Source: Chloroflexota bacterium
GTDB lineage: Bacteria; Chloroflexota; Limnocylindria; QHBO01
Reading direction: 5' to 3'
DNA: 64,000 nucleotides
Assembly (NCBI GenBank): GCA_040902225.1
Contig: JBBDXT010000007.1
Coordinates: forward strand, 256,346 to 320,345
The notes beneath the pieces are model-generated. The model saw only the letters and a program-made list of their open reading frames with translations, searched no databases and was not told the origin of the DNA. The position numbers were made by a program, and so were the translations under genes. Shown one piece after another: positions 14,198 to 31,728 of this stretch. Position 1 is the first letter of the stretch. Each line of letters starts with the position of its first letter.

Positions 14198-14619
14198 CTT
14201 GCTCCTCGCCGGTGGGCGAGCATCAAAAAACCGTGGACCCGATCTGGCCCACGGCTCGTGGCTTGTGCTTGGCGGCCCTGCCGCCATGGCATCAGCTCGA
14301 GGGGGGCGCAGATCTCCCGCCGTCGGCGCCGTTGGTAGGCGTCGTGAGGCGCTCGATTCGGGCGCTGTGCGAGAGTCTCATGGCTAGAACACACGTCCTC
14401 GTTGAGAGGTTGGCCGGGCGGCACCACACAGCGGTAAGGCAAGGTCGGGGCCGCCGCGGGAGTCTACGACCCGGTCTCTGGCGATGTCAAGCCGATTCCG
14501 GGGTAGTAGTTAGAGGCCGTCAAAGTTGCCGCGGCCGGGGGGAGCGGGGGATCGCCGGCCCTGCCGTCATGTGTTTCATGGGCCCACCTAGGCCTTCTGC
14601 GAAGGTGTGGCGGGCAGTA

Positions 14620-16110
14620 CTAGAGGATCGTGGGCTGCGTACCCGTGCCAACCAGGCATTGCGGCATTTGATTCACGATGAAACGCCAAGCGTTGCGAGC
14701 ATCGTCCGAGGTGAAATGGGGTTGGCTCTCCAAGTAGTAATTGGCTAGACCCCAATCCAGCCAGCCCATGTCCGGACGCCACATCACGTTCTGGGGACCC
14801 GCATGGCCGTAATGGCACAGGCCCAAGTAGTGCCCGATCTCGTGTGCCAGGACGTACTGGAATACATAGGACGGCCAGTGATCGCGGTGGAGGACAGCCG
14901 AGCCACGCTCTCCTCCGCTGTTAACCGTGGAGCAGCAGCTGTCGTTTCGATCCGGTGGAGTCGTGCATGAGGCTGCCCGCGTGCCCTCGAGCTGGCTTCG
15001 GCCAACGGTCAGACCGAAGTGCTCGCTGTCGTCGACGAGGTGATAGCGGAAGTTTCCCAGCGTTAGAAGTGTGCACTCCTCGCCAGACTCACCGTTGCGC
15101 AGTTCCTCGCGCACCAGCCACGGACTAATGAACCCATCCGAGAAGCGGAATTCGTCCTCGCCACTGATGTCATGCACCCCGTAATTGTGGAACCACGAGA
15201 AGCGTTCGCTGTCGTTCCATTCCAGCTTGATGCCAAGGTCATGACACCTCTCCGTGGCGATCCGGATTTTCTCGGCGACCGCCTCATCGGACATCGCGTA
15301 GATGCGTATGCGCCCTGTCCGCCCCTGACTATGGATGTAGCGCGAAAGTGTCCAGCGCGTGACCGGGAAGGAGCTCTCGTTCCCCTGCGAATCGACCTCT
15401 TTCACCACCGTGCGCGGTCGCGGTACGAAGTCGGCCGAATCGAAGCTGAGAAGCCGTGACATGGCATAGAGGTCGATTACGCCGCTCTCGTGCCACTGCC
15501 AGAGTGGGGACGTCGCGCTGTCCAGGCGCAGCACTAGGTGCCTAGCTTGAAGGGGTAGACCCCAGCCAGCCCGATCAAGACCGACACGATCGCGGGCCGC
15601 TTGTAGCGCGACGGGATCCGAGCCGAACTTCGTGTTCAGGAGGTCCGAGACGAAGCCACGCAGCGATGACCGATCGTACTTGCCAACTATGCCTCCAATG
15701 ACGTACCCGCCGAAGATGAAGCGAGCCGCATCCACGAGGAAATCGAGGAAATCCATGAAGAGGTTTCCGAATCCTTCGACGACGCCGACGAAGTCGAGCC
15801 GTAAGAGGTCCCCGAAGATGCCAATTACATCCCGAGCGGCATCGAAGAAATCTCCGATGAGATCCTGAGCGCCCTCTAAGAGCCCATCTAGGAATCCGCC
15901 GACAATGTTGCCGGCATTGCAGGCAAAGTCGCCGCCATTGGCGCACAACCAGTCGGTGCCGTCTTCAATCTGGTCCTGTGCCCAATCAATGCCCGTATCG
16001 ACGGCATCGTCCACCGTGTCGACGACCGCATCGGCCGCGTCCTCCACGGCATCGCCGACAGTCGACGCGACTGACGAGACGGCATTCCCGATGTCACTCA
16101 ACCAGCCCAT
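14620..16110 (-). CDS. Signal-less 496-aa protein: N-terminal acidic Gly/Asp/Phe-rich 11-residue-periodic repeat domain plus C-terminal metzincin-type zinc metallopeptidase domain (HEIGHYLGLCH ... NVMW)
   Basis: Extended HExxHxxGxxH motif with downstream Met-turn candidate. Strong RBS GGAGGT 6 nt before ATG 16110. No signal peptide or TM segment. Lower GC than flanks. Confidence 0.7.
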   Translation of the reverse strand: MGWLSDIGNAVSSVASTVGDAVEDAADAVVDTVDDAVDTGIDWAQDQIEDGTDWLCANGGDFACNAGNIVGGFLDGLLEGAQDLIGDFFDAARDVIGIFGDLLRLDFVGVVEGFGNLFMDFLDFLVDAARFIFGGYVIGGIVGKYDRSSLRGFVSDLLNTKFGSDPVALQAARDRVGLDRAGWGLPLQARHLVLRLDSATSPLWQWHESGVIDLYAMSRLLSFDSADFVPRPRTVVKEVDSQGNESSFPVTRWTLSRYIHSQGRTGRIRIYAMSDEAVAEKIRIATERCHDLGIKLEWNDSERFSWFHNYGVHDISGEDEFRFSDGFISPWLVREELRNGESGEECTLLTLGNFRYHLVDDSEHFGLTVGRSQLEGTRAASCTTPPDRNDSCCSTVNSGGERGSAVLHRDHWPSYVFQYVLAHEIGHYLGLCHYGHAGPQNVMWRPDMGWLDWGLANYYLESQPHFTSDDARNAWRFIVNQMPQCLVGTGTQPTIL

Positions 16111-16441
16111 GCGCCGACCTCCGCAAGTGGCCTTTCCCCATTCATCTCAGCTAGGGTCGCCTCTCGTTCATTGAAACTGCGCCCATCCGTGCGGGCCAGG
16201 CACAGCATGTCGCGCAGATTGCGGCGTGGCGAATCCCCGGCGGCACTCTCCCACTTGGGCAGGACCTTGCCGAAAGCGCGCACGTTCCACGTCGCAATCA
16301 ACAGAATTGCGGTCGAGGGTCTTGGGTGGGATCGAGGAGGCGTCCAGGGCTGCCCGCAGCGTGGCGATATCGGCAAGCGCCTTCGCGGGTGCGCCGCTCG
16401 GGAAGCTATCCATGCCAGATCTCCTCCCCTATTGAGCCGGA

Positions 16442-16885
16442 CTAGAGTCGTTCGTCTAGGCTCTGACCGGCGATGAGATAGTCATCGCGCGAGGCGAATT
16501 GCACGAGCAAAATGATCTCGCTATCGCCTGCTTGCCCGCCAGCAAGTCTCCTTTCCAGCAGGAACGTCGGAACCGGTGATCCCTTGATTTCCACGCGTAC
16601 GCCCCACGAGATGTCCAAATCGCTGACCTGCCCGACCTGCCACGTCAGCTCGGACCAATCGACACTCTTGATATCGTCCACGAACGCCGCCATATCGTTG
16701 TCGTAAACAACGTCTTGAGTCTTGGCTGTCAGGTGCTCCCAAGCAGTCGTGGTGTCGCCGGTAGCCAGCGCGCGCATGAAGTCGTCCGCGGCGCCGCTGG
16801 CTAGGTCGGGGCTCCCAATCTGTGCGCACGCGGTTAGTCCAAAGGCGAAAACAAGGATTGTCCCTGCGATTGCGTGACGGCCCAC
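16442..16885 (-). CDS. Lipoprotein, function unknown
   Basis: GTG start with AGGGGG RBS; signal peptide with lipobox LTAC (GRHAIAGTILVFAFGLTAC); low-GC island. Confidence 0.55.
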   Translation of the reverse strand: MGRHAIAGTILVFAFGLTACAQIGSPDLASGAADDFMRALATGDTTTAWEHLTAKTQDVVYDNDMAAFVDDIKSVDWSELTWQVGQVSDLDISWGVRVEIKGSPVPTFLLERRLAGGQAGDSEIILLVQFASRDDYLIAGQSLDERL

Positions 16886-16895
16886 GGTTAACCCC

Positions 16896-18080
16896 CTATT
16901 GCCAGCCAGCCCGGGACCAGTAGACGTCATTCTGCAGGACGTCGCTCACGCCTGGATTCTGCCGCTTGAAATCTGCGATTGACAAGTCGACGAGATACAC
17001 GTAGCCGCTCGCCTCCAAGCGTTCAAGCGTCGCGAGGTCGGGCACGGTCACATTGGCTGACACGATACCCATGACGCCGACATTGGCCTCGCTCGCCTCC
17101 TCATCGACCCATTCGGGATTCGCCCCTGGCCGCGTCATGACATATGTCACTCTGAGGCCATTGGCATCCGGCTCGGTCACGAATTCCAGATCCGCCACCG
17201 AAACGCCGAGCGCTTCGAAGTCTAAGAACTCGCTCCAAGTGAGCGGGTATGCGAATGTGACCACGCCGTCGGCAGGCCCGAGGTTACTTGTGGTGCGTGC
17301 GAGTTCACGCGTGCCGCGAGCATATGAAATGAGGCCACTGCCTAACTGCGCCGCGAGGTGCACATCCCCATCAGCGGCAAGAGTCGCTGTGTAAGGCCTT
17401 CCATTCGCGACTCTTAGGCTCGCGACATCCTGTGTCGCGGGCGCCGATTCGGGGGGAGCGATCGCGGCGAATTGGGAGTTGGAGGGATAGTAGGTGTCGG
17501 TGTCGTTCGGCAGAGGGGTGTTGCAGCAGTGGGTATCCCACTTGTCGCAGAAGAACGGGCAACCCGCCGTCGAGAGATTTTCGAAGTACTCGAGGTGCCC
17601 ACCATCGGGGTCGTACCTGCAGCAGACCTGGTTCCCGTTGACGTAGTAGGTGTACGAGTGTGACCAACGGACGGAGCTGTAGTACCACGTGTTCGCAGCG
17701 GGGAACGAATTGCTTTCTGAGACGATCTCGGCCTCGTCGTCTTTCGAGTCGCCGTTGTCGTCATCGAGATCCGTGTACGGGTTCAGGATAGTGGTGCCGA
17801 AAAGATAGGCTTCGACGTTGTGATTAAAGTCAGTTTGGTCGATGGTGAACTTGATGCCGTTGGCTTGGTTTGTCCGCTGGTGGGGCGCGTTGGTGGAGTT
17901 CCAAATCATGTAGATCCGCGCCCTGAACGAATCGTCCGTGGTTTTTCGGGTGAACGGGTAGCTATACACGTCGTATTCTTCGTAACTCCACCAGTCGTCG
18001 GTTTCGTGGTTCGCCGACACAGGGCTGCTGAGCGCGGCGCCGACGAAGATTGCCGCAGCAAACACTCGCAGTAGTCGCAC
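16896..18080 (-). CDS. Secreted Tyr/Asn/Trp- and Cys-rich protein, function unknown
   Basis: GTG start with AAGGAG RBS; Sec signal peptide RLLRVFAAAIFVGAALSSPVSA; CC/CxxC clusters; atypical composition and low GC. Confidence 0.55.
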   Translation of the reverse strand: MRLLRVFAAAIFVGAALSSPVSANHETDDWWSYEEYDVYSYPFTRKTTDDSFRARIYMIWNSTNAPHQRTNQANGIKFTIDQTDFNHNVEAYLFGTTILNPYTDLDDDNGDSKDDEAEIVSESNSFPAANTWYYSSVRWSHSYTYYVNGNQVCCRYDPDGGHLEYFENLSTAGCPFFCDKWDTHCCNTPLPNDTDTYYPSNSQFAAIAPPESAPATQDVASLRVANGRPYTATLAADGDVHLAAQLGSGLISYARGTRELARTTSNLGPADGVVTFAYPLTWSEFLDFEALGVSVADLEFVTEPDANGLRVTYVMTRPGANPEWVDEEASEANVGVMGIVSANVTVPDLATLERLEASGYVYLVDLSIADFKRQNPGVSDVLQNDVYWSRAGWQ

Positions 18081-18099
18081 GGGTTGCTCCTTTACCGGC

Positions 18100-18300
18100 G
18101 AGGGCGTTCGAGTAGTAGTCGTAGGTGCTGGACTTGGCGAACAGCAAGATGTACTCATGGCCGGTTACCGGGCGGTCCAAGACAGGCTCTGGCATGTGGG
18201 CGCGAGTTTCACGGAGCAGCTGCCCATCTTCATCATCCGGGAGCGGGCGCTGTTTCGACCAGATGATCATGGAGCGGAGCCACAGTCCCCGCTTTTGCAC
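18100..18300 (-). pseudogene. Remnant of an N4/N6 DNA methyltransferase gene (PF01555-like fragment)
   Basis: About 65 codons matching the post-DPPY region of amino-MTases (MIIWSKQ ... HEYILLFAKSSTYDY); no upstream catalytic motifs, and no methylase-like sequence downstream. Confidence 0.5.
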
Positions 18301-18394
18301 AGCCTGCGCAACGAGGAATGGAATTAGTGTCAGATCCTTGTCCTTGAGTCTGCGATCGTGCGCCGAGCAATCCCGGCCTTCTCGTCATCCTTAA

Positions 18395-18943
18395 GGTTCC
18401 ACACGTTCTGGGGCCCTCGCGCTCGCCACCGGGGGAGCCGTCGCGCTGGCGGCACAGCGGGGCTACTTCGACCAGAACCTCCTCGCCGGGGCGTGGCGGC
18501 TCTGGCCGCTGATCCTGGTCGCCATCGGCTTCTCGATCCTTGTCTCGAGGGGAATGCCGCAAGCTTCACCCTCAATCCCAAAGATGGCTGCGGGGGCCGC
18601 CGCCTGGGAAGTGCCATACGTGGCGGGCGGCGTCGCGGAGTACCTGGACGTCGTGATGTGGATCGTTGTGCCGTTCGGGCCAGGGCCGGCCGACACCGCC
18701 GTGGGTCAGCCGGCCGCAGCCGGCGCAGATCCGGTCACGAGCTGGAATGCACAGCCGCACCGCACAGAGCGCCGCTCAGGGAGCGGGTCGAGGATCTTCG
18801 GGCTGATCCTGATCGGGCTCGGCCTGTACTTCCTCGCGCGGGAGTACCTGCCCGGGGTCGACTTCGATCGGCTCTGGCCGCTGCGGCTCGTCATGCTCGG
18901 CGTGATCCTCCTGTACGGAGCGATCCGGAGCCGCCCAGCCTGA
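18395..18943 (+). pseudogene. Small membrane protein with two WPL-type TM hairpin repeats (DUF5668/LiaF-TM-like), apparently 5'-truncated at the island boundary
   Basis: Open frame from TAA at 18392 with no canonical start before ATG 18554. Repeats GAWRLWPLILVAIGFSIL and DRLWPLRLVMLGVILL. Its 3' 168 nt overlap the tail of the giant GT-C gene on the other strand. Confidence 0.3.
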
Positions 18944-21900
18944 AGTATCCGACCCCGAGCCGACGCTGCTCGCGGCTGCTCGCCGAGCGGCAATGAAGTC
19001 TCGCCCGAAGAGTGCAAAGGCTGCCGCACCCAGCGAGACGACCAGGCCGATCGCCAGCTTGACGCTGTCGGCGCTGAGCAGCTGACCGCGAGGGCCCTGC
19101 GGCGGATCGGGGAACTGGAACGCGTAGTTCCACGGGGCCAGGGCGCGGGCCGCGTTGATGTACCAGTCCGGCATGGCGAGCGCGGACCCGAGCGGGAAGA
19201 TGAGGAGCCCGGCGACCACGGCGAGGACCAGGAAGGCGATCGCCAGGGACCGATAGGCCCACGTCCGGAGGCCCTCGTCCACCACGTACGCCACCGCGAT
19301 CATGGCGATCAGGACGGCGGTGAAATAGTGGTAGTGGAAGGTCGCCCGCTCGATCCGGGTCCAGGGCAGGTACTGGAGCACGAACGCGGCGACGAGGAGG
19401 GTGAGGGCGAGCGATCGGCGACGCCAGGCCTGCACCGCGCACCACAGGATGGCCGGGATGCCGGCCCAGAACAGGATCGGGTTGCCGCCGTTGTAGATGA
19501 CCGCCATCTCGCGGTTGTCGTACGAGTGGCTGTAGAACCAGACCGGCTTCAGGTCGAGCGGCCAGCTCCACCACGGCGAGGCGGCCGGATGCCCGGCCTG
19601 CAGGCCGAAGTGGTAGCCGAACATCTGCGACTGCATCTCGTCCAGCGACCAGCCGTAGCCGGGGCCCAGCTTTTCGATCGAGATGCCGTGCCCCAGCTGG
19701 AGATACGGGATGTAGGCGACGAAGTAGATGAGCAGCGGAACCACCAGCAGGCAGGCCCCGACCCATGGCCAGGCGAAGCCAGCCATCTCGCCGGGGATGT
19801 ACCAGCGCCGGTCGCTGCTCGGCTCCCGGAGGGAGCGCCACGCTCGAGCGAGGAGCAGCAGACCCGCCACCGCCAACATGATCCAGGCGGGCCAGGCGGC
19901 CTGCGCCCCGCGCGCCAGGAAGGCAAAGAGGAACTCGACCGCGCTGCGTGGCTCCCGACCCTCCACGGTCGAATAGGCGATCGCGAAGGCCAGGCCGATC
20001 CCCCCTCCCACCACCCCGATCGGTGGGAGCGCCAGGATGTCCATCGGCGAGAGCTGAATCGGCCGCCGCCAGACCAGCAGCAGCGCCACGGCAAGCGCCA
20101 GGAAGCACACCACCAGGAACGGCCACGGGGCGCCAAAGCCCGCCACGACCGTGATGAAGGCGATCCCCGCCACCAGGAAGAATCTGCCGAATTGCGATCG
20201 GGCCAGCACCAGCACCCACAGCCCGATCAGCGCGTACCAACCCACCCACTTGCTCGCCGCGGCCAGGCCGATCAGGACGCCGACCAGCGGCAGCGCCCAC
20301 CAGGCGCTGCGCGCCCATCGGCCTGACCAGACCTGCCAGAAGAGCGCATAGCCGGCCAAGATGAAGGTCGCCACGAAGATGTCGTTCATCGAGATCCGGC
20401 TCATGACGTAGCTCATCCCGTCGAAGGCCACGAACAGGGCCGCCAGCACCGCGATGCGCCGGCGCGGGAAGAGGGTCGCGGCGAACAGGTAGATGATCCC
20501 GACCAGCGCGGCTCCGAATACGATCCCCGCCAGGCGCCAGGCGAAGGCATTGCTGCCCGCGTCGATCGACACCAGCCGGCTTGGTCCGCCAGCTCCCTCG
20601 TCGGTCGAGACCAGCAGCAAGCCATGGTCGTCCCCCTGGGCCTCGTCGGAGATGTCGAAGGCCATGGCCAGGGCCTCGCCCGGGAGGACGGTCGTGTCGA
20701 AGGCGGCAAAGCCGGCGCTCTGCGTGCCGCCGTTGCCAAGCGGCGAGACGGCCCATACGACCGGCTCATCCGTCCGCTCCCGCACCCCCGCGACGTAGAC
20801 GATGTTGGCCACCTGCTGCCAGCCGATCGCCACCGCCGGACCTGGCAGCGGGACCGTGTCGATCAGCTGCGCGCTCTCATCGAAGACGCTGAGCCCGCCA
20901 AGGACAGGCCCGTGCTCGTCGTCAGCCGGCAGCGGGCCGAGGGGGACCCAGACCTGGAGGTTCTTGCCGCTCCCCTGCACCAGCAGCGGGCCTACCGGGG
21001 TCGAGGGAAGCGCGATCTTGCCATCCGAGCCGACGTCGGTCTCGGGTCTCAGCGTGCCGCCGTCGAGCACGATCAGTCCCGAGCCCGCCCGGTCGACCGC
21101 TACCACCCGCGGGTCGGCGACCTCGCCCGATCCCCCCGGTACGTAGCCGACTCCGGTCGCCACGAGGTCGGAGCTGGCCAGCTCGACGCCCGTCTCCCGC
21201 TCGATCTCGACGATCCCGTTGGGTCCGAGGAAGAGGATCACCGTCTCTCCGTTGGGGACCACGATCTGCGTCACCGCCGCCAGGCCGGTCTCGATCTGGG
21301 CGACGCCGGGCGGTGGACCGCGCTCGCCGAGCTGGCCCAGGAAGGCGGTCATGTCGTAGGCGGACACCGCGCCGCCCGAAGCCAGCCCCACCAGGAGCCG
21401 GTCGCCATCCTCGTCATACGCCATGCTGGCCACCGGGCCCTGGGCGCTCCAGGAAGAGACCTGCTCGCCGGTCAGCACCTCCCGCGCCGTGATCACCTCG
21501 TCTCCGGCCGTGGTGAAGACGATCGACTTCGGTCGGGTCTGCGCCGTCCGCTGCGGAGCGATGGCGATGGCCGTGGCGGGGGCCTCGAGATCGGTCCCGC
21601 CGACGACCTTGTTGGGGTCCGCCACCAAGATCCCGGCGGCGATCAGGTATTTCGCCAGCGGCGGATGAGTCCACTCATACGTGTCACGGGTCCAGCCCTC
21701 CTGCCAGTCGGCCAGCCACTCGGTCGCGGTGCGCGCGTGGTAGACCTCGTCGAAATGGGTGTGCCGCGGCAGCTCCAGGCGCCACAGCCGGAACAGGAAG
21801 GCGGCAAGGATCAGCGTCGCCAGCAGGAGCAGGTCGAGCCGGTCCAGGCGTCGCCGAGGCTCTTCGACGTAGGTCGGATCGCGGCGCAGCCCGGCGGGGA

Positions 21901-23482
21901 GGCGCCATCGCCGAGGCGCCGCGGCGCCCTCGGGCGTGACCGCGGGTGCAGCCACGGGCGCCGAAACGAGCGGCCCCCTTTCGGTCCGCGCGCGTTGCAC
22001 CCCTCCCTCTTGCCGGACGCCCAGCGCCATCTCCGCCGCCCGGACCAGCAGCCAGGCCAGCGCGATCACGATCATCAGCGAGAGGAGGTAGATGCCGGTG
22101 TCGTTGAAGACGACCGTCGCCAGAACCGGGTCGCGCGGCATCGGCTCACGGAAGAGGCCCGGGTTCATGGGATGGTCGCCGCCGGCGAACGAGAAGTCGG
22201 TGGTGTAGAGCCAATAGACGTTCGAGAAGAACGAGAGGGTCAGCACGAAGTAGAGCGCCGCCCATTTCCAGGATCGGGCCACCAGCGGGGCGGCCAGCGC
22301 CAGCGCCGGGAAGAGATAGCGCTCGTGCACGCGGGTCGGCAGCGCGAAGAAGGCGACGGCCAGCACCAGGGCGCACACCAGGATGCCGGCGGGGTCGTCG
22401 CGGCGCGCGACGGTCCACAGCGCAACCAGGGCGGCGATGCCGAAGAGGCCTGCCCCCACGAGCTGCCAGCTGATCGGTGTCGAGCCAATCACGAAGGCGA
22501 TGCCCGATCCATCGGCGCAGGTGGGCGGAAGGGTGTCGCAGCCCCAGCGGTACGCATCGCCCAGGCCAGTCCACGGGTTGCGCCACAGGTTGAAGGCGTT
22601 GATGGTCAGGCCCTTGTAGGTGTTGCTCGCCGCGATGAAGCGGTCGACCAGGCTCAGGTTCGGATCGGCGGGTGCCCAGATGGCAAGGCGGAAGGGCAGG
22701 ATGACCAGGACCAAAGTGCCGAGGCCGGTCGCCAGCGAGGTGAGGATCCTGATCGGATCCGCTCGGCCGGCCTGATCCGGGTCGGATGAGCGGCCGAAGA
22801 GATGGCGCTTGATGCCGACCACCGCGACCAGTGGAATCAGGAAGCCGAACTGGAACTTGACCAGCATGGCGAGCACGGCGCCAGCCGCCGCGGCCTCGGT
22901 CCAGCCGCGAGCGAGCATGTAAAGCGTCGCCAGCACCACGAGCGTGCCGACCGAGTCGACCTGGCCCCAGACCGCGGAGTCGAAGATGGTTCCAGGGTTG
23001 AAGAGATAGATGACAACCGCCACCAGGCCAAGCCGCTCGCCGCTCCACGACCCCAGCCATCCGTCTCCGTAGCGGCGCGCGTAAAGGAAGAGGAGCCAGG
23101 CGACGCCAGCGTCGCCGAGGATCCCCGGCACCTTGACCAGGCCCGGCGTGATCGAGAGCCCGAAGACCGGCCGCAGCAGCTCGCCGATGCCCCCGAGCAG
23201 CCACAGCACGTACATGTAGCCGGGTGGGTAGTCCGCCAGGTAGCCGGGCTGGTAGAACTGGCCGGGCCCTTGGGCGGACATGCGGGCGGCCCAGATGGCG
23301 AAGTCGCCGACGTCCACGCGAAAGCCGGAGAACGGCAGGTACGGCCCGGCGATGACGGCGCGCAGCAGCACGCCGAGGACGATCAGGATGACGACCAGGG
23401 TCGCGGGATCGAGCGGCAGGCCGCGTTCGATTGGCCTCGCGCCCCGCTCCCTGACGGAGTCGCGGGTCATCGGTGACGGCAC
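18776..23482 (-). CDS. 1568-aa polytopic membrane protein: N-terminal GT-C-like domain fused to a Pmt-family (GT39) protein O-mannosyltransferase carrying a ~430-aa insertion in periplasmic loop 1
   Basis: Pmt hallmarks HFDEVYHARTA and HPPLAKYLIAAG, then after the insertion AWRLAGIVFGAAL... VAFDGMSYVMSRISMNDIF (compare Mtb Pmt LICDGVSFVTARTALLDGF) and C-terminal 4TMC region (FYSHSYDNREMAVIYNGGNPILFW). More than 20 predicted TM helices; acidic disordered tail. Confidence 0.7.
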   Translation of the reverse strand: MPSPMTRDSVRERGARPIERGLPLDPATLVVILIVLGVLLRAVIAGPYLPFSGFRVDVGDFAIWAARMSAQGPGQFYQPGYLADYPPGYMYVLWLLGGIGELLRPVFGLSITPGLVKVPGILGDAGVAWLLFLYARRYGDGWLGSWSGERLGLVAVVIYLFNPGTIFDSAVWGQVDSVGTLVVLATLYMLARGWTEAAAAGAVLAMLVKFQFGFLIPLVAVVGIKRHLFGRSSDPDQAGRADPIRILTSLATGLGTLVLVILPFRLAIWAPADPNLSLVDRFIAASNTYKGLTINAFNLWRNPWTGLGDAYRWGCDTLPPTCADGSGIAFVIGSTPISWQLVGAGLFGIAALVALWTVARRDDPAGILVCALVLAVAFFALPTRVHERYLFPALALAAPLVARSWKWAALYFVLTLSFFSNVYWLYTTDFSFAGGDHPMNPGLFREPMPRDPVLATVVFNDTGIYLLSLMIVIALAWLLVRAAEMALGVRQEGGVQRARTERGPLVSAPVAAPAVTPEGAAAPRRWRLPAGLRRDPTYVEEPRRRLDRLDLLLLATLILAAFLFRLWRLELPRHTHFDEVYHARTATEWLADWQEGWTRDTYEWTHPPLAKYLIAAGILVADPNKVVGGTDLEAPATAIAIAPQRTAQTRPKSIVFTTAGDEVITAREVLTGEQVSSWSAQGPVASMAYDEDGDRLLVGLASGGAVSAYDMTAFLGQLGERGPPPGVAQIETGLAAVTQIVVPNGETVILFLGPNGIVEIERETGVELASSDLVATGVGYVPGGSGEVADPRVVAVDRAGSGLIVLDGGTLRPETDVGSDGKIALPSTPVGPLLVQGSGKNLQVWVPLGPLPADDEHGPVLGGLSVFDESAQLIDTVPLPGPAVAIGWQQVANIVYVAGVRERTDEPVVWAVSPLGNGGTQSAGFAAFDTTVLPGEALAMAFDISDEAQGDDHGLLLVSTDEGAGGPSRLVSIDAGSNAFAWRLAGIVFGAALVGIIYLFAATLFPRRRIAVLAALFVAFDGMSYVMSRISMNDIFVATFILAGYALFWQVWSGRWARSAWWALPLVGVLIGLAAASKWVGWYALIGLWVLVLARSQFGRFFLVAGIAFITVVAGFGAPWPFLVVCFLALAVALLLVWRRPIQLSPMDILALPPIGVVGGGIGLAFAIAYSTVEGREPRSAVEFLFAFLARGAQAAWPAWIMLAVAGLLLLARAWRSLREPSSDRRWYIPGEMAGFAWPWVGACLLVVPLLIYFVAYIPYLQLGHGISIEKLGPGYGWSLDEMQSQMFGYHFGLQAGHPAASPWWSWPLDLKPVWFYSHSYDNREMAVIYNGGNPILFWAGIPAILWCAVQAWRRRSLALTLLVAAFVLQYLPWTRIERATFHYHYFTAVLIAMIAVAYVVDEGLRTWAYRSLAIAFLVLAVVAGLLIFPLGSALAMPDWYINAARALAPWNYAFQFPDPPQGPRGQLLSADSVKLAIGLVVSLGAAAFALFGRDFIAARRAAASSVGSGSDTSGWAAPDRSVQEDHAEHDEPQRPEPIEVDPGQVLPREEVQAEPDQDQPEDPRPAP

Positions 23483-23586
23483 CTCGCTATCGGCGCCTGG
23501 GTGTGTCGTACGCCAACGTGGGCCGGAGTATACATCCGGGTTTCGGACGCCCCCGAACCACGGTCGGTTGCGCTAGGGTACCGACC

Positions 23587-24339
23587 GTGACCGATTCCGA
23601 GCCCTCCGCCCGGCCGCGCCTGACCTTCTTCTTCCCGGCCTACAACGAGGAGGAGAACATCGCGCGGACCGTCGGGCTGGCACTCTCGCAGATCGGTCCG
23701 GTGGTCCCTTCGATCGAGGTCCTGGCGATCGACGATGGCTCGACCGACCAGACGCCGGCGCTCGCCGACGCCCTGGCCGCGGCCGACCCGCGCGTGCGGG
23801 TTCACCACCAGCCGAACCGCGGCTACGGCGGGGCCATCAAGGCGGGCTTCGAGCAGGCACGCGGCGAGCTGATCTGCTTCTCGGACGGCGACCTCCAGTT
23901 CGACCTGCGCGAGATGAGCCGGCTCCTGGAGCGGCTGGCGGACGAGCGGAAGCCGGTCGACGCGGTGATCGGCTTCCGGATCAAGCGTCGCGACCCGTTC
24001 CACCGCATCTTCATCGCCAAGACCTACAACGCGATCGTGTCGGTCGCCTTCGGCCTGCGCGTGCGCGACATCGACTGCGCCATGAAGCTCTTCCGGCGGG
24101 AGGTCTTCGAGGGTTTGCGCCTGGATGCCGAGGGGCCGTTCCTGTCGGCCGAGCTGCTCATCAAGCTGCGTGCGCGGGGGGTCCGCACGGCGCAGGTCGG
24201 TGTCAATCACTTCCCCCGCGCTGCCGGCACCAATACCGGGGCCAGCTTCAAGAAGATTCTGCGCACCTTCCGTGACCTGGCCAGGCTGCGCTGGGACCTG
24301 TGGACGAAGCGCGACGAGGTTCTCGGCCGCCGCGTCTGA
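23587..24339 (+). CDS. GT2 polyprenol-phosphate mannose synthase (Ppm1/DPM1-like)
   Basis: FFFPAYNEEENI, AIDDGSTDQT, DGD and QxRR-type blocks of DPM1-family GT2. GTG at 23587 preferred over the long N-terminal extension. Confidence 0.75.
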   Translation: MTDSEPSARPRLTFFFPAYNEEENIARTVGLALSQIGPVVPSIEVLAIDDGSTDQTPALADALAAADPRVRVHHQPNRGYGGAIKAGFEQARGELICFSDGDLQFDLREMSRLLERLADERKPVDAVIGFRIKRRDPFHRIFIAKTYNAIVSVAFGLRVRDIDCAMKLFRREVFEGLRLDAEGPFLSAELLIKLRARGVRTAQVGVNHFPRAAGTNTGASFKKILRTFRDLARLRWDLWTKRDEVLGRRV

Positions 24340-24389: not shown

Positions 24390-24920
24390 TCAGGCCCCCT
24401 GCTCCTCGCTGGGCGGACCCTTCTCCCCACCCTCCAGGTCGACGTCGAGCGAGTTGACGAACTCGCGGAAGATGGCGAGGCTCTCATCGTGCACGTCGCC
24501 GGGTTCGGCGCGGTCTGGCTCCACCCCGGCCTCGTCGAGGACCCGCTCATCCACGTAGATGGTCGACCCGGTGCGCACCGCCACCGCGATCGCATCGCTG
24601 GTCCGGGAGTCGATCTCGGCCTCCCCGCCGTCGGCGGTCTCGACGTAGAGCCGCGCGTGGAAGGTGCCGTCCGTCACGTGCGTGATGACGACACGGCTGA
24701 TGCTGGAGTTCAGGGCGGCCACGATGCTGACGAGCAGATCGTGGGTCAGCGGGCGCTCCGCGTTGAGGCCCTGCAGACGCATGGCGATGGCGTTGGCCTC
24801 TGACGGGCCGATCCAGATCGGCAGATACCGCTCCCGGTCGGACTCCTTCAGGATGACCACGTGCTGGCTCGAGAGCATGTGCACGCGAACGCTTTCGACG
24901 ACCATCTCGATCAGCCTCAC
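24390..24920 (-). CDS. Bifunctional nuclease family protein (BFN/DUF151)
   Basis: Family-defining blocks RYLPIWIGPSEANAI, RPLTHDLL and SDAIAVAVRTGSTIYV. Confidence 0.75.
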   Translation of the reverse strand: MRLIEMVVESVRVHMLSSQHVVILKESDRERYLPIWIGPSEANAIAMRLQGLNAERPLTHDLLVSIVAALNSSISRVVITHVTDGTFHARLYVETADGGEAEIDSRTSDAIAVAVRTGSTIYVDERVLDEAGVEPDRAEPGDVHDESLAIFREFVNSLDVDLEGGEKGPPSEEQGA

Positions 24921-24939
24921 CGACCGATTCTAGATGAGG

Positions 24940-27162
24940 CTACTCGAGGACGACTCGGACGATCCGTGTCGGCGTCAGCAGGTACGCGACCGGTGGGCCG
25001 TCGGCGACCGAGGCAACGCTGAAGGCCCGCACCTCGTCCAGCAGCGCGGCCTCCGCGCCGCTGCGTGGCGCGAGCCATTGGCGCAGGAACGAGCCGTCGG
25101 CACGCTGGTAGGAGAGAATCCGCGCATGCGCCGCGTCGTAGACGTAGAAGGTCTCGCGGTCGCCGATCGTCGCACCGTCAAGAAGGCGGTAGTCGAGGTT
25201 GGGGCGGAGAGACCCGTCCGGCGGCGCGTCGAGGGAATAGTCCTCCTGCGCAAGCGGCGTCCCGAAGTTGACGCGCGTCACGGTGCGGGCCTGCAGCAGC
25301 CACAGGTTGGCATCCGCGAACATGTCGCGGGCCTGGGCGACGGGCAGATCCGGGCGCTCGACGAGGTACGACTCGGGTGGGCTCGGGTAGCGGACCGGGA
25401 TCACGTCGCCAGGGGTCCACTTGAGCACGTCGCCCCCACCCCCATCGACCAGGTACAGGTTGAAGATCTCCAGTGGTGGCCGATGCTGGAGTGCGGTCAG
25501 CAGCCGGCTCTCCGTTGAGACGGCACCCAGGCCGGGCAGCCCGATCGGATGCGCGACCTGCTCGACGAGGTCGAAGCGCCACGCCTGCCGGGCGCGATCC
25601 AGCAGCACCACGTCGGTCGCCGCGGTGGCGATCATCCACGGGGCCCCGGCCGTCACGCCGTCGAGGTCCTGTCCTGCCCGATACAGGACGGCCGCCTCCC
25701 CGCTCGCCGGATCCACCCGGATCACACGCCCGTGACCGACCTCGGCGACCCACAACGAGCCGTCGCTGGCCATCACCATGTCGACCGGATCGGTGGCGGT
25801 GAAGGCGGCCGCAAGGTCGGCCACGGTGGTGCTGTCGAGGAGGCGCCCCACCGCGAAGATCGTGTCCAGGCCGCGCTCGATGCGGCCCCGCAGCGGGTCG
25901 AGCGAGGCCGGGGCGACGCCTGCCTCAGAGGCTCGTTCGATGGCGGCGAGCGAGTCGGTCAGGAGCGTGGCTGCACGCGTCGGGTCGCGGTCGATCAGGT
26001 CCCGCCCGTCGACCCTTTCGTCGACCGTGCCGACCAGCTCATGCGCCTCGGCGATGGCGGCCCGCGCGATCGAGGCTCGCAGGATGGCGTCGGTCGGACG
26101 CGGGTTCGGGAGGCTGGCAACACTCGCGCCGACCGCCAGCAGGGCCGCCACGGCGGCGATCCCGAGCAGCCCGCGACGGCGGCGACGCCCCTCTTCGCGC
26201 AGCGCGGTGCGGGGGATGCTGGTCGGATAGCGCGCGCGGCGGCGGGGCACGAAGGCGAGCGCCATGTTGACCCCCACCAGGAGGCCGCGTGCCAGCGCGC
26301 GCTGGCCGGCGTCGATGGCATCGCCGCCCCGGTGCAGAAGGTGCCCGATCGCATCGGCCAGCGGGACCGGGCTGCGGTCCGGGAGTCCGGCCAGCTCCTC
26401 GTGCGGATGAACCGGCTCGAGCTGGTGGGTGGCGGCCGTCGCCGCCAGCTCGATCAGCTCGATCGCCAGCAGCCCGTCGGAGCCCTGGCCGCCCCGGATC
26501 TGGAAGAGCTGGTGCAGGTGCTCGACCGCTGCTGCCGGGCGGAGCGTGGCCAGGGCGCGCTGCACCTCGTCGACCCCGACCACCTGGGCCACGTTGCGCG
26601 ACACGAGCGCCACCCGGTCGCCCGCCGCGAGCTCGCCCTCCCAGGTGTACGGCTTGATCTCGAGCGTCTCCCCGAGCGAGTCGGCAACCCGGCGCTCGCG
26701 GACCCGCGGATCCTCCGCATCCACGGACGGGGGAGGCGGCAGCTCGAACATCCGCTCGTCCCGCACGATGACCGCGGCGGCTGGCCCGAGCTTGGCCACG
26801 TGCCCCTCCCGCCCACGAACCACCAGGGCCACGATGCTCACCCCTCCACGTCGGGTGAGCCCGAGCCGAGTTCGCTGGTGGTAGAGGAGCCGGTTGGCGG
26901 CGGAGAGCGCCTTGCTGATCGCTCCCGTCGCGCCCGCGGAAAGGTCGTAGTAGTAGTCGCGCTCGATCGTCTCCAGAGCCTCGGCCGCGGCGCGGCCCAG
27001 CGCCGGATCGGCGCCGGTGACCTGCGCGAGGAGGAAGAGGCTGCCCTTGGTGCGCACCTCTGACCCGGTCGTGGGCTCGCGAAATCGAACCAGGTCGAGC
27101 GCGTCGGAGGCGCGTTCCTCGCCGGCCAACAGGCCGATGCGGGTGGCCAGGCGGTTGCTCAT
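24940..27162 (-). CDS. Single-pass membrane protein: cytoplasmic domain with weak PP2C-like features lacking catalytic acidic residues, TM helix, and extracytoplasmic beta-propeller (NHL/SMP-30-like) domain
   Basis: ATG at 27162 (MSNRLATR); PP2C-like strand patterns (GVSIVALVVRG, GDRVALVSRNVAQVV) without metal-binding Asp; TM LLGIAAVAALLAVGASVA; propeller-like repeats (VASDGSLWVAEVGHGRVIRVDPASG). Confidence 0.4.
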   Translation of the reverse strand: MSNRLATRIGLLAGEERASDALDLVRFREPTTGSEVRTKGSLFLLAQVTGADPALGRAAAEALETIERDYYYDLSAGATGAISKALSAANRLLYHQRTRLGLTRRGGVSIVALVVRGREGHVAKLGPAAAVIVRDERMFELPPPPSVDAEDPRVRERRVADSLGETLEIKPYTWEGELAAGDRVALVSRNVAQVVGVDEVQRALATLRPAAAVEHLHQLFQIRGGQGSDGLLAIELIELAATAATHQLEPVHPHEELAGLPDRSPVPLADAIGHLLHRGGDAIDAGQRALARGLLVGVNMALAFVPRRRARYPTSIPRTALREEGRRRRRGLLGIAAVAALLAVGASVASLPNPRPTDAILRASIARAAIAEAHELVGTVDERVDGRDLIDRDPTRAATLLTDSLAAIERASEAGVAPASLDPLRGRIERGLDTIFAVGRLLDSTTVADLAAAFTATDPVDMVMASDGSLWVAEVGHGRVIRVDPASGEAAVLYRAGQDLDGVTAGAPWMIATAATDVVLLDRARQAWRFDLVEQVAHPIGLPGLGAVSTESRLLTALQHRPPLEIFNLYLVDGGGGDVLKWTPGDVIPVRYPSPPESYLVERPDLPVAQARDMFADANLWLLQARTVTRVNFGTPLAQEDYSLDAPPDGSLRPNLDYRLLDGATIGDRETFYVYDAAHARILSYQRADGSFLRQWLAPRSGAEAALLDEVRAFSVASVADGPPVAYLLTPTRIVRVVLE

Positions 27163-27203
27163 CGGGGAATCCGGACTCGAGCGAGGGACGGCGACGGGCC
27201 CGA

Positions 27204-27554
27204 TTATAGGGAGCGGCCACCCCCCGAACGAGCCACCGAAACGGTGACCCGGGTGAGGACGATCGTCGCCCCCGGACGCCCGTCCATGCGCTGGTTGGTG
27301 GCCGCCATGAGGGCCTCGGCGCGCAGCCCGAGCTCTTGCGCGAGGATCGGCTCGGACGCCTCCACCTGGGCGGTCCCGGCGCGGACGGTGATCAGGCGCG
27401 ACGAGAGGCTGTCGCGCTCGAGCCCGGCGGCGGTGACCGCCTCCTGCCACGCCAGCCGCGCCTGGGCCAGCGCGATCTGCTCGGCGGCACCGGGACCCAT
27501 GCAGGCGAGCAGGGCTCGCTGCACCGCACTGGCGGCCTCCTCGGTGCGGCTCAT
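27204..27554 (-). CDS. DUF721 domain protein (DciA-like helicase-loader candidate) downstream of recF
   Basis: Size and position (recF-DUF721, 4-nt overlap) typical of actinobacterial DciA; sequence compatible with DUF721. Confidence 0.55.
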   Translation of the reverse strand: MSRTEEAASAVQRALLACMGPGAAEQIALAQARLAWQEAVTAAGLERDSLSSRLITVRAGTAQVEASEPILAQELGLRAEALMAATNQRMDGRPGATIVLTRVTVSVARSGGGRSL

Positions 27555-28729
27555 GCCACGCGCGGCGCCTGCGAGAGGCGTCCCTCACCGGCCTGCCAGA
27601 TCGTGACGCCCCTGCGCCCGGCGGGGAGGGTCGCCAGGTCCGCCATCGTGACCAGCACCTGGCCTCGATCCAGGAGCAGCGACAGCGACCGGTCGGAGCG
27701 CTCCGCGTCGAGCTCGGAGAAGATGTCGTCCAGCAGCACGATCGGGGTCGGGGCGCCATCGGCCCCCAGCAGGTCGGTCTCGGCCAGCTTCAGGGCCAGG
27801 ATGATCGTGCGCTGCTGCCCCCGGCTGGCATGCGTCGCCACCTCGCGACCGGCGAGCTCGACCCGCAGGTCGTCGCGGTGTGGCCCGACCAAGGAGACGC
27901 CGTTCCACAGCTCCTTCTCCCGAGCCTGGCTGATCCGTCGGCGGTAGGCCGCCTCGAGCTCCTCGATCGGTGGGGCCGCAGCGGTCGCCGCGGGCCGTTC
28001 CGGCCAGGCGTCCTTGAGCGTGTCGGCGTAGGTGACACGAACCTGTTCGCCGCGCTCGTCGACGGGAGCCACCGCGTCATGCAGCCCGGGGATCCGAGCC
28101 GCGAGGTCGGCCACCAGGTCCAGCCGCGCGGCCATCACCCGCGCCCCGACCAGCGCGAGCTGCTCGTCCCAGAAGGTGAGGTTGTCGGCCGTCGCCTCCT
28201 CGCGGCGGATGGCACGCAACAGAGCGTTGCGCTGGGCGAGGATCCGCCCCAGCTCGGCCAGGTCGGGTGCCGCCGCGCGGTGGCGCTGCGCCAGGATTGC
28301 GTCCATGAACCGACGGCGCTCGGAGGGGGCGCCCACCAGGAGGAGCATCTCCTCCGGCCGGAAGAGGACGACGCGGACGGTATCGCCGATGGTCGAGGCC
28401 CGCCTGGGCAGGCCATTGACGGTGACCCGCTTGCGGATCTCGGGGGGTGCGTCCTCGGCGGGGATCAGCAGCTCCACCCGCGAGGTCGAGGCACCCTGCG
28501 GGTCGGACAGGTCGAGCCGGACGCGGGCAAATGGCCGGGAGTGGCGCACCAGCTCGGCGTCCGATCCCGCCCGATGCGAGCGCCCCGTCACGGCGACGAA
28601 GACTGCCTCGAGCAGATTGGTCTTGCCGGCGCCGTTCGGGCCGGCCACGATCGTCATGCCGGGTTCCGGGTGGAGCTCCGCGCTGGCGTAGCTGCGGAAG
28701 TCCTCGAGGACGAGTCGGGTCAGGCGCAC
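27551..28729 (-). CDS. recF: DNA replication and repair protein RecF
   Basis: Walker A GPNGAGKTNLLEA, SMC-like signature and Walker B LLDDIFSELD. Confidence 0.9.
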   Translation of the reverse strand: MRLTRLVLEDFRSYASAELHPEPGMTIVAGPNGAGKTNLLEAVFVAVTGRSHRAGSDAELVRHSRPFARVRLDLSDPQGASTSRVELLIPAEDAPPEIRKRVTVNGLPRRASTIGDTVRVVLFRPEEMLLLVGAPSERRRFMDAILAQRHRAAAPDLAELGRILAQRNALLRAIRREEATADNLTFWDEQLALVGARVMAARLDLVADLAARIPGLHDAVAPVDERGEQVRVTYADTLKDAWPERPAATAAAPPIEELEAAYRRRISQAREKELWNGVSLVGPHRDDLRVELAGREVATHASRGQQRTIILALKLAETDLLGADGAPTPIVLLDDIFSELDAERSDRSLSLLLDRGQVLVTMADLATLPAGRRGVTIWQAGEGRLSQAPRVA

Positions 28730-28763
28730 CGCTCTGCTCCGGCCACCAGCCTGGCGGCCCTCC

Positions 28764-29888: not shown

Positions 29889-29912
29889 TCCGACCTCATC
29901 CTTGACGACCAT

Positions 29913-30208
29913 TGGTTCTCCACTGGCCTGTGCGTCACTCTATGAAACCAAGAGAAGGATACTCATCCGCAGCCGTCCCTAGTAGGCGTGTGGACGATGT
30001 GGATCGTCACGCACGTCCGTGCTTGGCCGCGGTGCCGATAACAGCCTCCCGTCGGTGGGCATCCGTCCTCGTGGTGAGCCCTTGCTGTGGATGGCTCGCC
30101 CCACCCGGTTGACAACCCTCCCGTCTGCGTCCGGCGACCCGGCAGCTTCGTCCACGTCGAGCGACATTTCTCCACCGTCCTGGCCAGGTTCTCCACGGAC
30201 GGCAGGCG
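29913..30208. other. Candidate oriC: dnaA-dnaN spacer with cluster of DnaA-box-like 9-mers and an AT-richer stretch
   Basis: TGTGGACGA, TGTGGATCG (tandem, 29988-30006), TGTGGATGG (30086-30094), and TTCTCCAC(T/C/G) at 29918, 30166 and 30188; AT-rich segment 29940-29970. Confidence 0.5.
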
Positions 30209-31549: not shown

Positions 31550-31728
31550 CGATAGCCAACTCCCAATCGATTGAGCCGCGGCGTTCCGGCACCGGTTGAG
31601 GACCTCCCTCGGGGCGCACGGGACCCGGTCAGATGGGCGCGGGCCTCGGGGGTCGCGGTAGTGTAGCAGCACCCTTTCGGGACCGGCAATGGATTAGTTC
31701 AAGTTGCCGTCGCTCCGGGGTTGGAGGT

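Follow-up and report, generated by a model that had tools for sequence, protein, structure and literature searches.

Can one long gene of a Chloroflexota genome encode, in a single polypeptide, a complete machine for protein O-mannosylation? Bacterial protein O-mannosylation is important for the virulence of Mycobacterium tuberculosis and for the integrity of the actinobacterial envelope, and how a bacterial protein O-mannosyltransferase (Pmt) that lacks a MIR domain chooses its substrates has been a puzzle. The gene lies in a stretch of 64,000 nucleotides (the window), in which an earlier note, made from the sequence alone, had described it as a Pmt interrupted by a soluble insertion and preceded by a second GT-C-like domain. 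A recent preprint proposes that substrate choice is the task of a second GT-C protein, separate from the Pmt, and of a propeller that caps the active site (bioRxiv 10.64898/2026.07.15.738315); the parts of this gene are compared with that arrangement below.

An uninterrupted gene conserved in Ca. Limnocylindria

The single 1,568-aa ORF that had been claimed is present: the frame is unbroken on the minus strand (18776..23482) from a GTG at 23482 to the stop codon at 18776–18778. Since it agrees with the NCBI protein (P0001, 1,564 aa, 100% identical to the window protein) and with the family consensus 'MTRDSVR', the ATG at 23470, four codons inside the GTG, is the likelier start and would give a product of 1,564 aa. 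The frame ends in an acidic, Pro-rich low-complexity tail and the stop codon (18776..18991, minus strand; aa 1498–1568, from the translation); this tail is weakly conserved in family alignment A1.

A gene of this composition might also arise when two or three genes are joined by a sequencing or assembly error, and one related locus (L001) has a contig on which the gene is called as two pieces. The split in L001 is, however, a 1-nt frameshift within the last TM helix of the N-terminal domain. A search for frameshifts or stops that would break the gene found instead that in 70 of the 81 related loci fetched, each an independent assembly, the frame runs for 1,480 codons or more without a stop; the other 11 are contig-edge truncations, except for L001 and for L075, in which the frame is slightly shorter (1,471 codons). 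Furthermore, the propeller described below is embedded within the Pmt domain, a position that a boundary between genes cannot explain. An origin of the long frame in a frameshift or a faulty assembly is effectively refuted.

At least 120 full-length homologues (1,500–1,650 aa) were found, with identity down to 53%, and among the species genomes of Ca. Limnocylindria at least 80 carry relatives of nearly full length; in all, 323 species genomes encode a relative. A second subfamily, in Ca. Limnocylindrales, has 1,700–1,900 aa and 31–34% identity, with the parts in the same order. The fusion is conserved across the Chloroflexota class Candidatus Limnocylindria, which one published survey treats as known largely from metagenome-assembled genomes. 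Named matches are all Limnocylindria or Chloroflexota. A few bins are labelled otherwise (Steroidobacteraceae, Methylomirabilota, Zixiibacteriota, Kineosporiaceae, Saccharimonadales, Patescibacteria and Clostridia); since their sequences are highly similar to those of Limnocylindria, we assume that they are mis-binned contigs. Two kinds of candidate for natural gene splitting were set aside: L001 (protein P0152), as fusion/fission evidence, because of its 1-nt frameshift, and the other 'short' relatives because they are contig-edge partials.

A C-terminal Pmt module divided by an insertion

The proposed Pmt identity, which was to stand or fall with profile matches, was upheld. Pfam PMT (PF02366) matches in two stretches, split by the insertion, with 51.2 bits against a gathering score of 22.7 (53.8 bits after removal of the insertion in silico), and PMT_4TMC (PF16192) matches aa 1282–1429 with 60.2 bits against 32.4, so that both are above cut-off. 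The motifs quoted in support of this identity were likewise all found: HFDEVYHARTA at aa 576–586, HPPLAKYLIAAG at 606–617 and VAFDGMSYVMSRISMNDIF at 1015–1033.

The first part of the module (21623..21823, minus strand; aa 554–620) comprises TM1 and leads into extracytoplasmic loop 1, with the DE motif and the HPPLAK helix. The DE motif, D578-E579 in HFDEVYHAR (nt 21746–21751), is invariant in 36 family members, and the invariant residues of this part in family alignment A1 are D578, E579, H582, R584, H606, P607 and K611. This part aligns with yeast Pmt2 'VWDEAH...HPPLGKML', the DE motif falling over 'WDEAH' of Pmt2. The second part (18992..20548, minus strand; aa 979–1497), delimited from the hydropathy profile, runs from TM2 onwards and contains the SRISMND motif, a Pfam PMT match at aa 977–1127, the PMT_4TMC region and a final extra TM helix. 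Judged by the PMT and PMT_4TMC matches and the alignment with yeast Pmt2, aa 554–1497 are assigned to a GT39 Pmt with a DE motif, as had been claimed.

The NCBIfam equivalog for actinobacterial Pmt (NF058602) scores 27.1 bits against a cut-off of 800, with a match to aa 1297–1398 only, which places the window protein by sequence as a distant GT39 member without an ortholog-level match to the characterised actinobacterial Pmt. A full-length Pfam scan at E ≤ 1 gave no MIR domain, and the sole large soluble domain is the loop-1 propeller. The low equivalog score (27 bits), together with a GT2 neighbour closer to ArnC than to Dol-P-Man synthase, could be taken to mean that the GT39-like module moves another sugar, or that its acceptor is not a protein but, for example, a wall polymer bound by the propeller. 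However, PMT_4TMC is Pmt-specific, the DE and HPPLxK motifs are invariant and each characterised GT39 enzyme in the cited literature is a protein O-mannosyltransferase, and we consider a departure of this kind very unlikely.

A beta-propeller in loop 1

The insertion (20549..21622, minus strand; aa ~621–978) is a seven-bladed beta-propeller, a toroid of seven four-stranded blades with a velcro closure in which the N- and C-terminal strands share one blade. The suggested beta-rich module has thereby been borne out, and its site between HPPL and TM2 was correct, whereas its size is ~360 aa rather than the ~430 claimed. With the insertion removed in silico, alignment with yeast Pmt2 puts the insertion point within loop 1, after the HPPL(G/A)K helix and before TM2. 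Since the loop enlarged by the propeller bears the DE motif, this insertion point suggests that the propeller lies directly above the Pmt active site.

Propeller repeat families (WD40, YVTN, PQQ and NHL) gave sub-threshold Pfam matches only, of which the best had E 0.004 and 16.9 bits (cut-off 90). Seven-bladed propellers of the YncE/YVTN and WD40 types share 8–15% identity with the window propeller and differ from it in that the latter sits within a loop of a GT-C protein. A literature search found no paper on a propeller inside a GT39 chain; the one paper combining GT39 with a propeller has the propeller as a separate subunit.

An N-terminal GT-C domain with candidate catalytic residues

The N-terminal domain (22013..23482, minus strand; aa 1–490) is a polytopic bundle made up entirely of helices; its N-terminus is rich in Arg, and its conserved motifs are DYPPGY, WGQVD, KxQ and PTRVHERY. 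Its polytopic helical fold matches solved GT-C enzymes, so that the second GT-C-like domain of ~480 residues in the earlier note is a true GT-C fold of ~490 aa. Membership in GT87/DUF2029, also put forward there, was not established: the window protein has no match to Pfam GT87 (PF09594), and by fold the domain is nearest to ALG6, PIG-M and ALG3, not to PimE. For this domain Pfam and NCBIfam gave no family above threshold, and a profile search against PDB sequences gave no match even at E ≤ 10. Pfam PIG-U (PF06728) reached 21.8 bits against 24.5, over aa 120–231 only, and 14 of 40 relatives match it weakly. PimE (GT87), ALG6 (GT57), PIG-M (GT50) and ALG3 (GT58) are lipid-phosphate-sugar-dependent GT-C enzymes, to which the window domain is 13–16% identical; unlike them, it is fused to a Pmt and falls below every Pfam family threshold.

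A candidate catalytic base is Asp57 (23312..23314, minus strand), which sits on the N-terminal tip of JM1, the first juxtamembrane helix. In the model this helix spans aa 55–71, with D57 at its start, directly after TM1. D57 is invariant in family alignments A1 and A2, including standalone homologues at 33–39% identity, and D57, K209, Q211, H386, E387 and R388 are invariant, also in the standalone homologues (~460–570 aa) and the second subfamily (31–34% identity). In PimE, which like ALG6, ArnT and PglB belongs to GT-C_A, the catalytic Asp is at the apex of JM1, and a Lys and a His stabilise the phosphate (PMC12041525). From position and spacing we infer that D57 is analogous to D58 of PimE, and K209 and H386 to K195 and H322, and D57 may likewise correspond to the catalytic Asp of ALG6; by this analogy the domain may have catalytic activity, perhaps in lengthening a glycan chain. 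A profile–profile alignment of the domain with the Pmt core, placing D57 on the DE motif, was not significant (probability below 1%).

Alternatively, the N-terminal GT-C could be a pseudo-enzyme without transferase activity of its own, which would serve the Pmt solely as a structural partner in a dimer or as a scaffold that recruits acceptors; such a part has been proposed for ML2687c and yeast Pmt2, and PIG-U plays it in the GPI transamidase. A purely structural role is also plausible since the mycobacterial GT-C partner, ML2687c, is described as having no catalytic residues (bioRxiv 10.64898/2026.07.15.738315). The window domain, in contrast, keeps its candidates: the polar residues D57 at the JM1 tip, K209/Q211 and R384-H386-E387-R388 are invariant down to ~31–39% identity, where a GT-C active site is expected. 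In addition, the best structural matches (ALG6, PIG-M and ALG3) are active enzymes, and the standalone homologues suggest that the family can work alone. We therefore hold an inactive N-terminal domain to be rather doubtful.

The linker joining the two GT-C modules (21824..22012, minus strand; aa 491–553) is Arg-rich, predicted to be cytoplasmic and poorly conserved, its consensus in family alignment A1 being mostly 'x'. In PimE-type GT-Cs the N- and the C-terminus are both cytoplasmic, and MtPMT has a cytosolic N-terminus and a periplasmic C-terminus; together with the Arg-rich N-terminus and linker, these topologies are consistent with one another in the fusion.

A divergent GT2 gene upstream

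Upstream of the fusion gene lies a divergent GT2 gene (23587..24339, plus strand; 250 aa, GTG start at 23587) of the polyprenyl-phosphate-sugar synthase type, and this arrangement recurs in 71 of the 81 related loci. Its product matches Pfam Glycos_transf_2 at 2.6e-30 and, among PDB sequences, ArnC (2e-17), Pyrococcus furiosus Dol-P-Man synthase (1.7e-12) and GtrB (2e-8); its NCBIfam matches are all far below equivalog cut-offs. With respect to the GDP-mannose specificity of a true Ppm1, the ArnC-type match is slightly above the DPMS-type one, and neither is at equivalog level. The earlier description of a divergent Ppm1-like gene therefore holds for the synteny and the synthase type, the type being ArnC/DPMS/GtrB. 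The GT2 presumably supplies the lipid-linked donor. The divergent intergenic region (23483..23586, no strand assigned), as read from the sequence, is presumed to contain both promoters; a scan of the locus for promoters and terminators was uninformative, with no match to the sigma-70 consensus, and the promoters are placed from the gene arrangement only.

A further GT-C gene, TMEM260_N-like, belongs to the cluster in approximately half of the related loci.

Lipoglycan had been named next to protein as a possible target of the locus, and this found no specific support. A related explanation is that two separate enzymes were fused for co-expression or donor sharing, the N-terminal domain acting on a lipid or envelope polysaccharide (cf. 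PimE and PIMs/lipoglycans) and the Pmt on proteins. PimE-, ALG- and PIG-M-type relatives do use lipid-linked acceptors (PMC12041525), and the TMEM260_N-like gene hints at a broader envelope-glycan pathway. Yet the fusion and its domain order are kept in both subfamilies of the class, independent data show a physical pairing of mycobacterial Pmt with another GT-C and, in Paenibacillus, a fusion of the two (bioRxiv 10.64898/2026.07.15.738315), and PimE (GT87) is itself reported to extend protein O-mannose chains in mycobacteria (PMC12757957). Two independent activities in one chain are thus unlikely.

Discussion

It is established that the gene is intact and conserved, as are the folds and family signatures of its three segments, the place of the insertion and the synteny, and we lean slightly towards the gene being a single-polypeptide version of a bacterial protein O-mannosylation machine. 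Our inferences about the sugar and its acceptor, about what the propeller does and about the catalytic competence of the N-terminal domain are as follows. The divergent GT2 would make the lipid-linked donor at the cytoplasmic face, and the C-terminal GT39 Pmt would take mannose from polyprenyl-phosphate-mannose and attach it, at the outer face of the membrane, to Ser/Thr of proteins that are exported. The propeller may hold or select acceptor polypeptides above the active site, a task attributed to the MIR domains of eukaryotic PMTs and, in mycobacteria, to the separate propeller subunit ML0810c/Rv3212. The N-terminal ALG6/PIG-M/PimE-like GT-C, tethered by the cytoplasmic linker, would be the second GT-C protomer, comparable with yeast Pmt2 and ML2687c/Rv0051. 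Since its Asp at the JM1 tip and its Lys and His are invariant, it is probably active, presumably as a polyprenyl-phosphate-sugar transferase that extends O-linked mannose as PimE does in mycobacteria.

More tentatively, the protein might be a naturally occurring one-chain version of an ancient Terrabacteria O-mannosylation holoenzyme. Both GT-Cs would then be active, one initiating and one extending, so that the protein would be a bifunctional dual-GT-C enzyme, and the propeller would be the bacterial functional counterpart of MIR. If true, this would be independent evolutionary proof of a complex of Pmt, GT-C partner and propeller. As the partner GT-C of the window retains active-site-like residues, one may also ask whether the ancestral partner was an elongating enzyme that later degenerated in mycobacteria. 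A class-wide three-part fusion is classic 'Rosetta-stone' evidence of joint action, from an unrelated phylum and with the propeller put precisely on the loop that bears the catalytic motif. With all parts in one gene, a single construct could serve for the structure of the whole machine by cryo-EM and for its biochemistry; the fusion also suggests an investment in protein O-glycosylation by Ca. Limnocylindria.

Comparison with known systems

The actinobacterial Pmts (M. tuberculosis Rv1002c and S. coelicolor Pmt) with Ppm1 have in common with the window protein the GT39 core, the DE motif, PMT_4TMC, the lack of MIR and the predicted dependence on a polyprenyl-phosphate-sugar synthase. Unlike the window protein, they are standalone enzymes of ~500 aa without a large extracytoplasmic domain, and compared with Ppm1 the window GT2 consists of the soluble catalytic domain only and adjoins the transferase gene. 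The eukaryotic PMT1–PMT2 and Pmt4 dimers (PDB 6P25 and 9E61) resemble the proposed arrangement in that a GT39 catalytic core works in paired GT-C protomers, with a lumenal beta-rich cap over the active site that engages the acceptor. Their cap, however, is a beta-trefoil MIR in loop 5/EL4, not a propeller in loop 1, and their partner protomer is another GT39, not an ALG6/PimE-like GT-C. The Paenibacillus GT87-GT39 translational fusion (UniProt V9WAU2; bioRxiv 10.64898/2026.07.15.738315), compared by description, resembles the window protein in joining a second GT-C and a GT39 Pmt in one chain; it is from Bacillota, and the preprint mentions no propeller insertion for it.

The closest counterpart is the mycobacterial Pmt holo-complex proposed in July 2026 from AlphaFold3 models, a pull-down and phenotype correlations: Pmt (ML0192c/Rv1002c), recovered with a GT87-like GT-C (ML2687c/Rv0051) and a periplasmic propeller (ML0810c/Rv3212), and two copies of ML1065/Rv1209 (bioRxiv 10.64898/2026.07.15.738315). 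AlphaFold3 puts its propeller over the DE motif (same preprint). The likeness, which for the N-terminal domain and the propeller is one of description and not of sequence, extends to a GT39 Pmt with a DE motif, a second GT-C, an extracytoplasmic propeller by the active site and a lipid-linked donor. In mycobacteria these are separate subunits, with a DivIVA-like bridging subunit; the window protein is one chain with the propeller spliced into Pmt loop 1, and it has no evident bridging subunit and a covalent linker instead. The mycobacterial propeller is described as membrane-anchored and eight-bladed, and since that of the window is seven-bladed, the two may be convergent. We read the window gene as a fusion of all three mycobacterial-type parts, whose design appears to mirror the multi-subunit complex: a new arrangement of a kind already known.

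The Pmt fusion is a single, intact gene

The minus-strand frame running from a GTG codon at position 23482 to position 18776 is single and uninterrupted over 1,568 codons, as judged from the ORF listing and its translation. Since Pfam PMT and PMT_4TMC both match this frame above threshold, in keeping with the Pmt-family membership proposed in the earlier note, and since an NCBI protein (P0001, 1,564 aa, annotated 'phospholipid carrier-dependent glycosyltransferase [Chloroflexota bacterium]') is 100% identical to it, we consider the frame to be real. Both P0001 and the family consensus begin with MTRDSVR, from which we take the ATG at 23470 as the probable start codon. The G+C content of the fusion-gene region is ∼70%, so that long antisense ORFs are expected as noise. 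One such ORF of 721 codons (20624–22789, plus strand) falls within the fusion gene and is high-G+C noise of a typical kind, not a gene.

A stop-free frame of at least 1,480 codons is present in 70 of the 81 fetched related loci, the exceptions being contig-edge truncations and the loci L001 and L075. In L001 (public contig ERZ25039536:contig_601) two genes are called, one for the N-domain (464 aa) and, after it, one for the Pmt part (1,040 aa). When the sequence was read across the junction (9376–9430), the final TM helix of the N-domain was seen to run on in another frame. A natural split was therefore rejected in favor of a 1-nt frameshift within that helix, probably the result of faulty assembly or of recent pseudogenisation. 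With 70 of 81 loci open and the L001 split explained by a 1-nt frameshift, an artefactual origin of the fusion is excluded, and the view that this is one long gene rather than separate genes joined by a frameshift holds. The observation made in the earlier note is thus confirmed and its interpretation is supported, with the refinements described below.

A beta-propeller is inserted into loop 1 of the Pmt module

The Pmt module (aa 554–620 and 979–1497, minus strand, as are its flanks) comprises TM1, the invariant DE motif D578–E579, the HPPLAK helix, the SRISMND motif and PMT_4TMC. It is preceded by an Arg-rich, poorly conserved linker (aa 491–553) and followed by an acidic, Pro-rich tail (aa 1498–1568). 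When the insertion was deleted in silico, the remaining Pmt sequence aligned to yeast Pmt2 with the cut falling in the loop between 'HPPLGKML...' and TM2, which bears out the proposed location in loop 1. The insertion itself (aa ∼621–978) is ∼360 aa long, shorter than the ∼430 aa first estimated. Its AF2 model (pLDDT 86.8, pTM 0.87) is all-beta with ∼28 strands, consistent with the anticipated beta-rich character. One blade of the propeller is completed jointly by the first two and the last two strands of the insertion, and the N- and C-termini are adjacent, making the propeller well suited to insertion into a loop. Conserved residues cluster in a few inter-strand loops, e.g. GERxPPP, LPADxEH, PLGNGG, FDTT and SDxxQxDDH.

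The chain of PimE-type GT-Cs crosses the membrane in 12 TM helices, starting and ending in the cytoplasm; for MtPMT, experiments placed the N-terminus in the cytosol and the C-terminus in the periplasm (PMC12331936). We infer that the linker is cytoplasmic, with the propeller and the two candidate active sites on the extracytoplasmic side of the membrane. This topology fits the Arg-rich nature of the N-terminus and linker of the window protein.

The N-terminal GT-C domain retains a putative active site

Searches of sequence libraries with the N-domain (aa 1–490) gave only sub-threshold matches (PIG-U, 21.8 bits vs 24.5). Matches of its relatives to PMT_2, GT87 and ALG6/8 were likewise sub-threshold, and the suggested GT87 membership is not established. 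The N-domain profile had no match among PDB sequences, and hhalign against the Pmt core was not significant. An AF2 model built with 40 fused and standalone homologues is all-helical (pLDDT 89.1, pTM 0.89), and its nearest folds are active GT-C transferases, upholding the description of a polytopic, GT-C-like domain.

Residues invariant in the fused and in the 33–39%-identical standalone homologues include D57, D124, D176, E196, K209, Q211, R384, H386, E387, R388 and Y389. D57, K209/Q211 and PTRVHERY are likewise retained in a distant subfamily of 1,700–1,900-aa relatives. In the AF2 model, D57 is at the start of helix 55–71, the first helix after TM1. The catalytic Asp of PimE, ALG6, ArnT and PglB occupies the same position, and in PimE the phosphate is handled by K195 and H322 (PMC12041525); the correspondence to D57 is one of position, not of coordinate superposition. 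A serious alternative is that the N-domain is a pseudo-enzyme or scaffold, as proposed for the mycobacterial protein ML2687c. However, the Asp-Lys-His set is conserved in active-site-like positions down to ∼31–39% identity, and the nearest folds are those of active enzymes. On these grounds we favor a catalytic N-domain, which would probably extend the glycan.

A standalone N-domain homologue, P0239 (545 aa, 36% identity), is encoded within ∼4 kb of rpsF-ssb-rpsR (loci L082, 3744–9638, and L083). Mycobacterium tuberculosis Rv0051 presumably also adjoins rpsF-ssb-rpsR, which could be coincidence or old synteny.

Genomic neighborhood

Divergent from the fusion gene lies a GT2 gene (23587–24339, plus strand, GTG start, 250 aa), which is upstream and divergent in 71 of the 81 loci. 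Because, among solved structures, its product is closest to ArnC (2e-17), Pyrococcus furiosus Dol-P-Man synthase (1.7e-12) and GtrB, it is assigned by sequence to the polyprenyl-phosphate-sugar synthase type. The earlier proposal of a Ppm1-like synthase therefore stands as to enzyme type, with mannose as one candidate sugar.

In 40 of the 81 loci, the more distant ones, an additional TMEM260_N/DUF2723-like GT-C gene of ∼430 aa is located between GT2 and the fusion (L001 6305–7597, minus strand); no counterpart was found anywhere within the 64-kb window. The human protein TMEM260 is a protein O-mannosyltransferase too; by analogy, the pathway may include a third GT-C in some Limnocylindria.

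The upstream block 24390–31672 is syntenic across the class. It contains, all on the minus strand, a bifunctional-nuclease-domain gene (24390–24920), a 939-codon ORF (24940–27759), recF (27551–28729), dnaN (28764–29912) and dnaA (30209–31672), indicating that the locus is origin-proximal. Considering that the 5′ end of the 939-codon ORF overlaps recF, its true start is probably near 'MSNRLATRIG', giving ∼710 aa. A single TM helix and weak matches to NHL/SGL-type propellers mark this ORF, which is conserved beside the cluster in 60 of the 81 loci; two genes from the Pmt fusion, it thus putatively encodes a membrane-anchored extracytoplasmic propeller protein.

Directly downstream of the fusion gene (14600–18500), the G+C content is 55–63%, compared with ∼70% inside it. 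Two minus-strand ORFs in this stretch, coding for a Cys-rich product whose N-terminus is signal-like (16896–18158) and a protein with a zinc-protease-like HEIGHYLGLCH motif (14620–16110), had no tblastn match in the 81 related loci. The stretch is probably a strain-specific island.

The tripartite design is a class-wide trait

A first protein search yielded at least 120 full-length relatives of 1,500–1,650 aa with identities down to 53%, and a scan with one genome per GTDB species found relatives in 323 genomes. In the best 80 of these 323, the relatives are near-full-length (50–92% identity); nearly all are labeled Candidatus Limnocylindria, Chloroflexota or 'uncultured Chloroflexia', and one closed 2.09-Mb chromosome is included. 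The distant 1,700–1,900-aa subfamily, whose named members belong to Ca. Limnocylindrales and Chloroflexota, came to light when the insertion profile was used for an exhaustive HMM search. As Pfam and BLASTP showed the same order of parts at 31–34% identity, the tripartite design is a trait of the class. In two members (P0295 and P0289), PMT Pfam match positions place the loop-1 insertion ∼50–90 aa longer than in the window protein, which could be enough for an eighth blade, as in the eight-bladed mycobacterial ML0810c.

Comparison with the mycobacterial Pmt complex

Mycobacterial Pmt co-purifies with ML2687c/Rv0051, described as GT87-like and as without catalytic residues, and with ML0810c/Rv3212, an eight-bladed periplasmic propeller; AlphaFold3 puts the latter directly above the DE motif, and the authors propose a gatekeeper analogous to MIR domains (bioRxiv 10.64898/2026.07.15.738315, July 2026 preprint). 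The remaining component is a DivIVA-like bridge, ML1065, and Paenibacillus GT39 enzymes translationally fused to a GT87 enzyme are noted (same preprint). MIR domains are absent from bacterial PMTs (PMC12331936), and for mycobacteria, elongation of O-mannose chains by PimE/GT87, following Pmt, has been reported (PMC12757957).

Since one chain holds the three large parts of this complex, with the propeller within the DE-motif loop, we read the window gene, by analogy, as a putative single-chain O-mannosylation machine. In such a machine, the Pmt module would initiate, the propeller would cap the active site and select acceptors, the second GT-C would be the partner protomer and GT2 would supply the donor. 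Alternatively, the N-domain might work independently, with a lipid or a polysaccharide as its acceptor, or the GT39 module might use a non-protein acceptor; we regard both as less likely. The components (GT39 Pmt, GT-C partner, propeller and GT2 donor synthase) are of known kinds and a two-part GT87–GT39 fusion is already mentioned in the literature. Neither the Limnocylindria protein nor a propeller within a GT39 chain was the subject of any paper found in our literature searches, and the three-part fusion with a loop-1 propeller is not described in the literature searched. The fusion is of value mainly as evolutionary evidence, independently obtained, in favor of the recently proposed Pmt holo-complex of bacteria, and as a single-gene experimental handle on it.

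The same three large parts are thus proposed to be separate subunits in mycobacteria but form one chain here, the likeness of the partners being one of description, which either homology or analogy may underlie. The window propeller has seven blades and sits in the loop carrying the catalytic DE motif, whereas ML0810c has a reported eight and is a separate protein. Finally, the GT-C partner keeps its Asp-Lys-His set in the window protein, in contrast to ML2687c as described.
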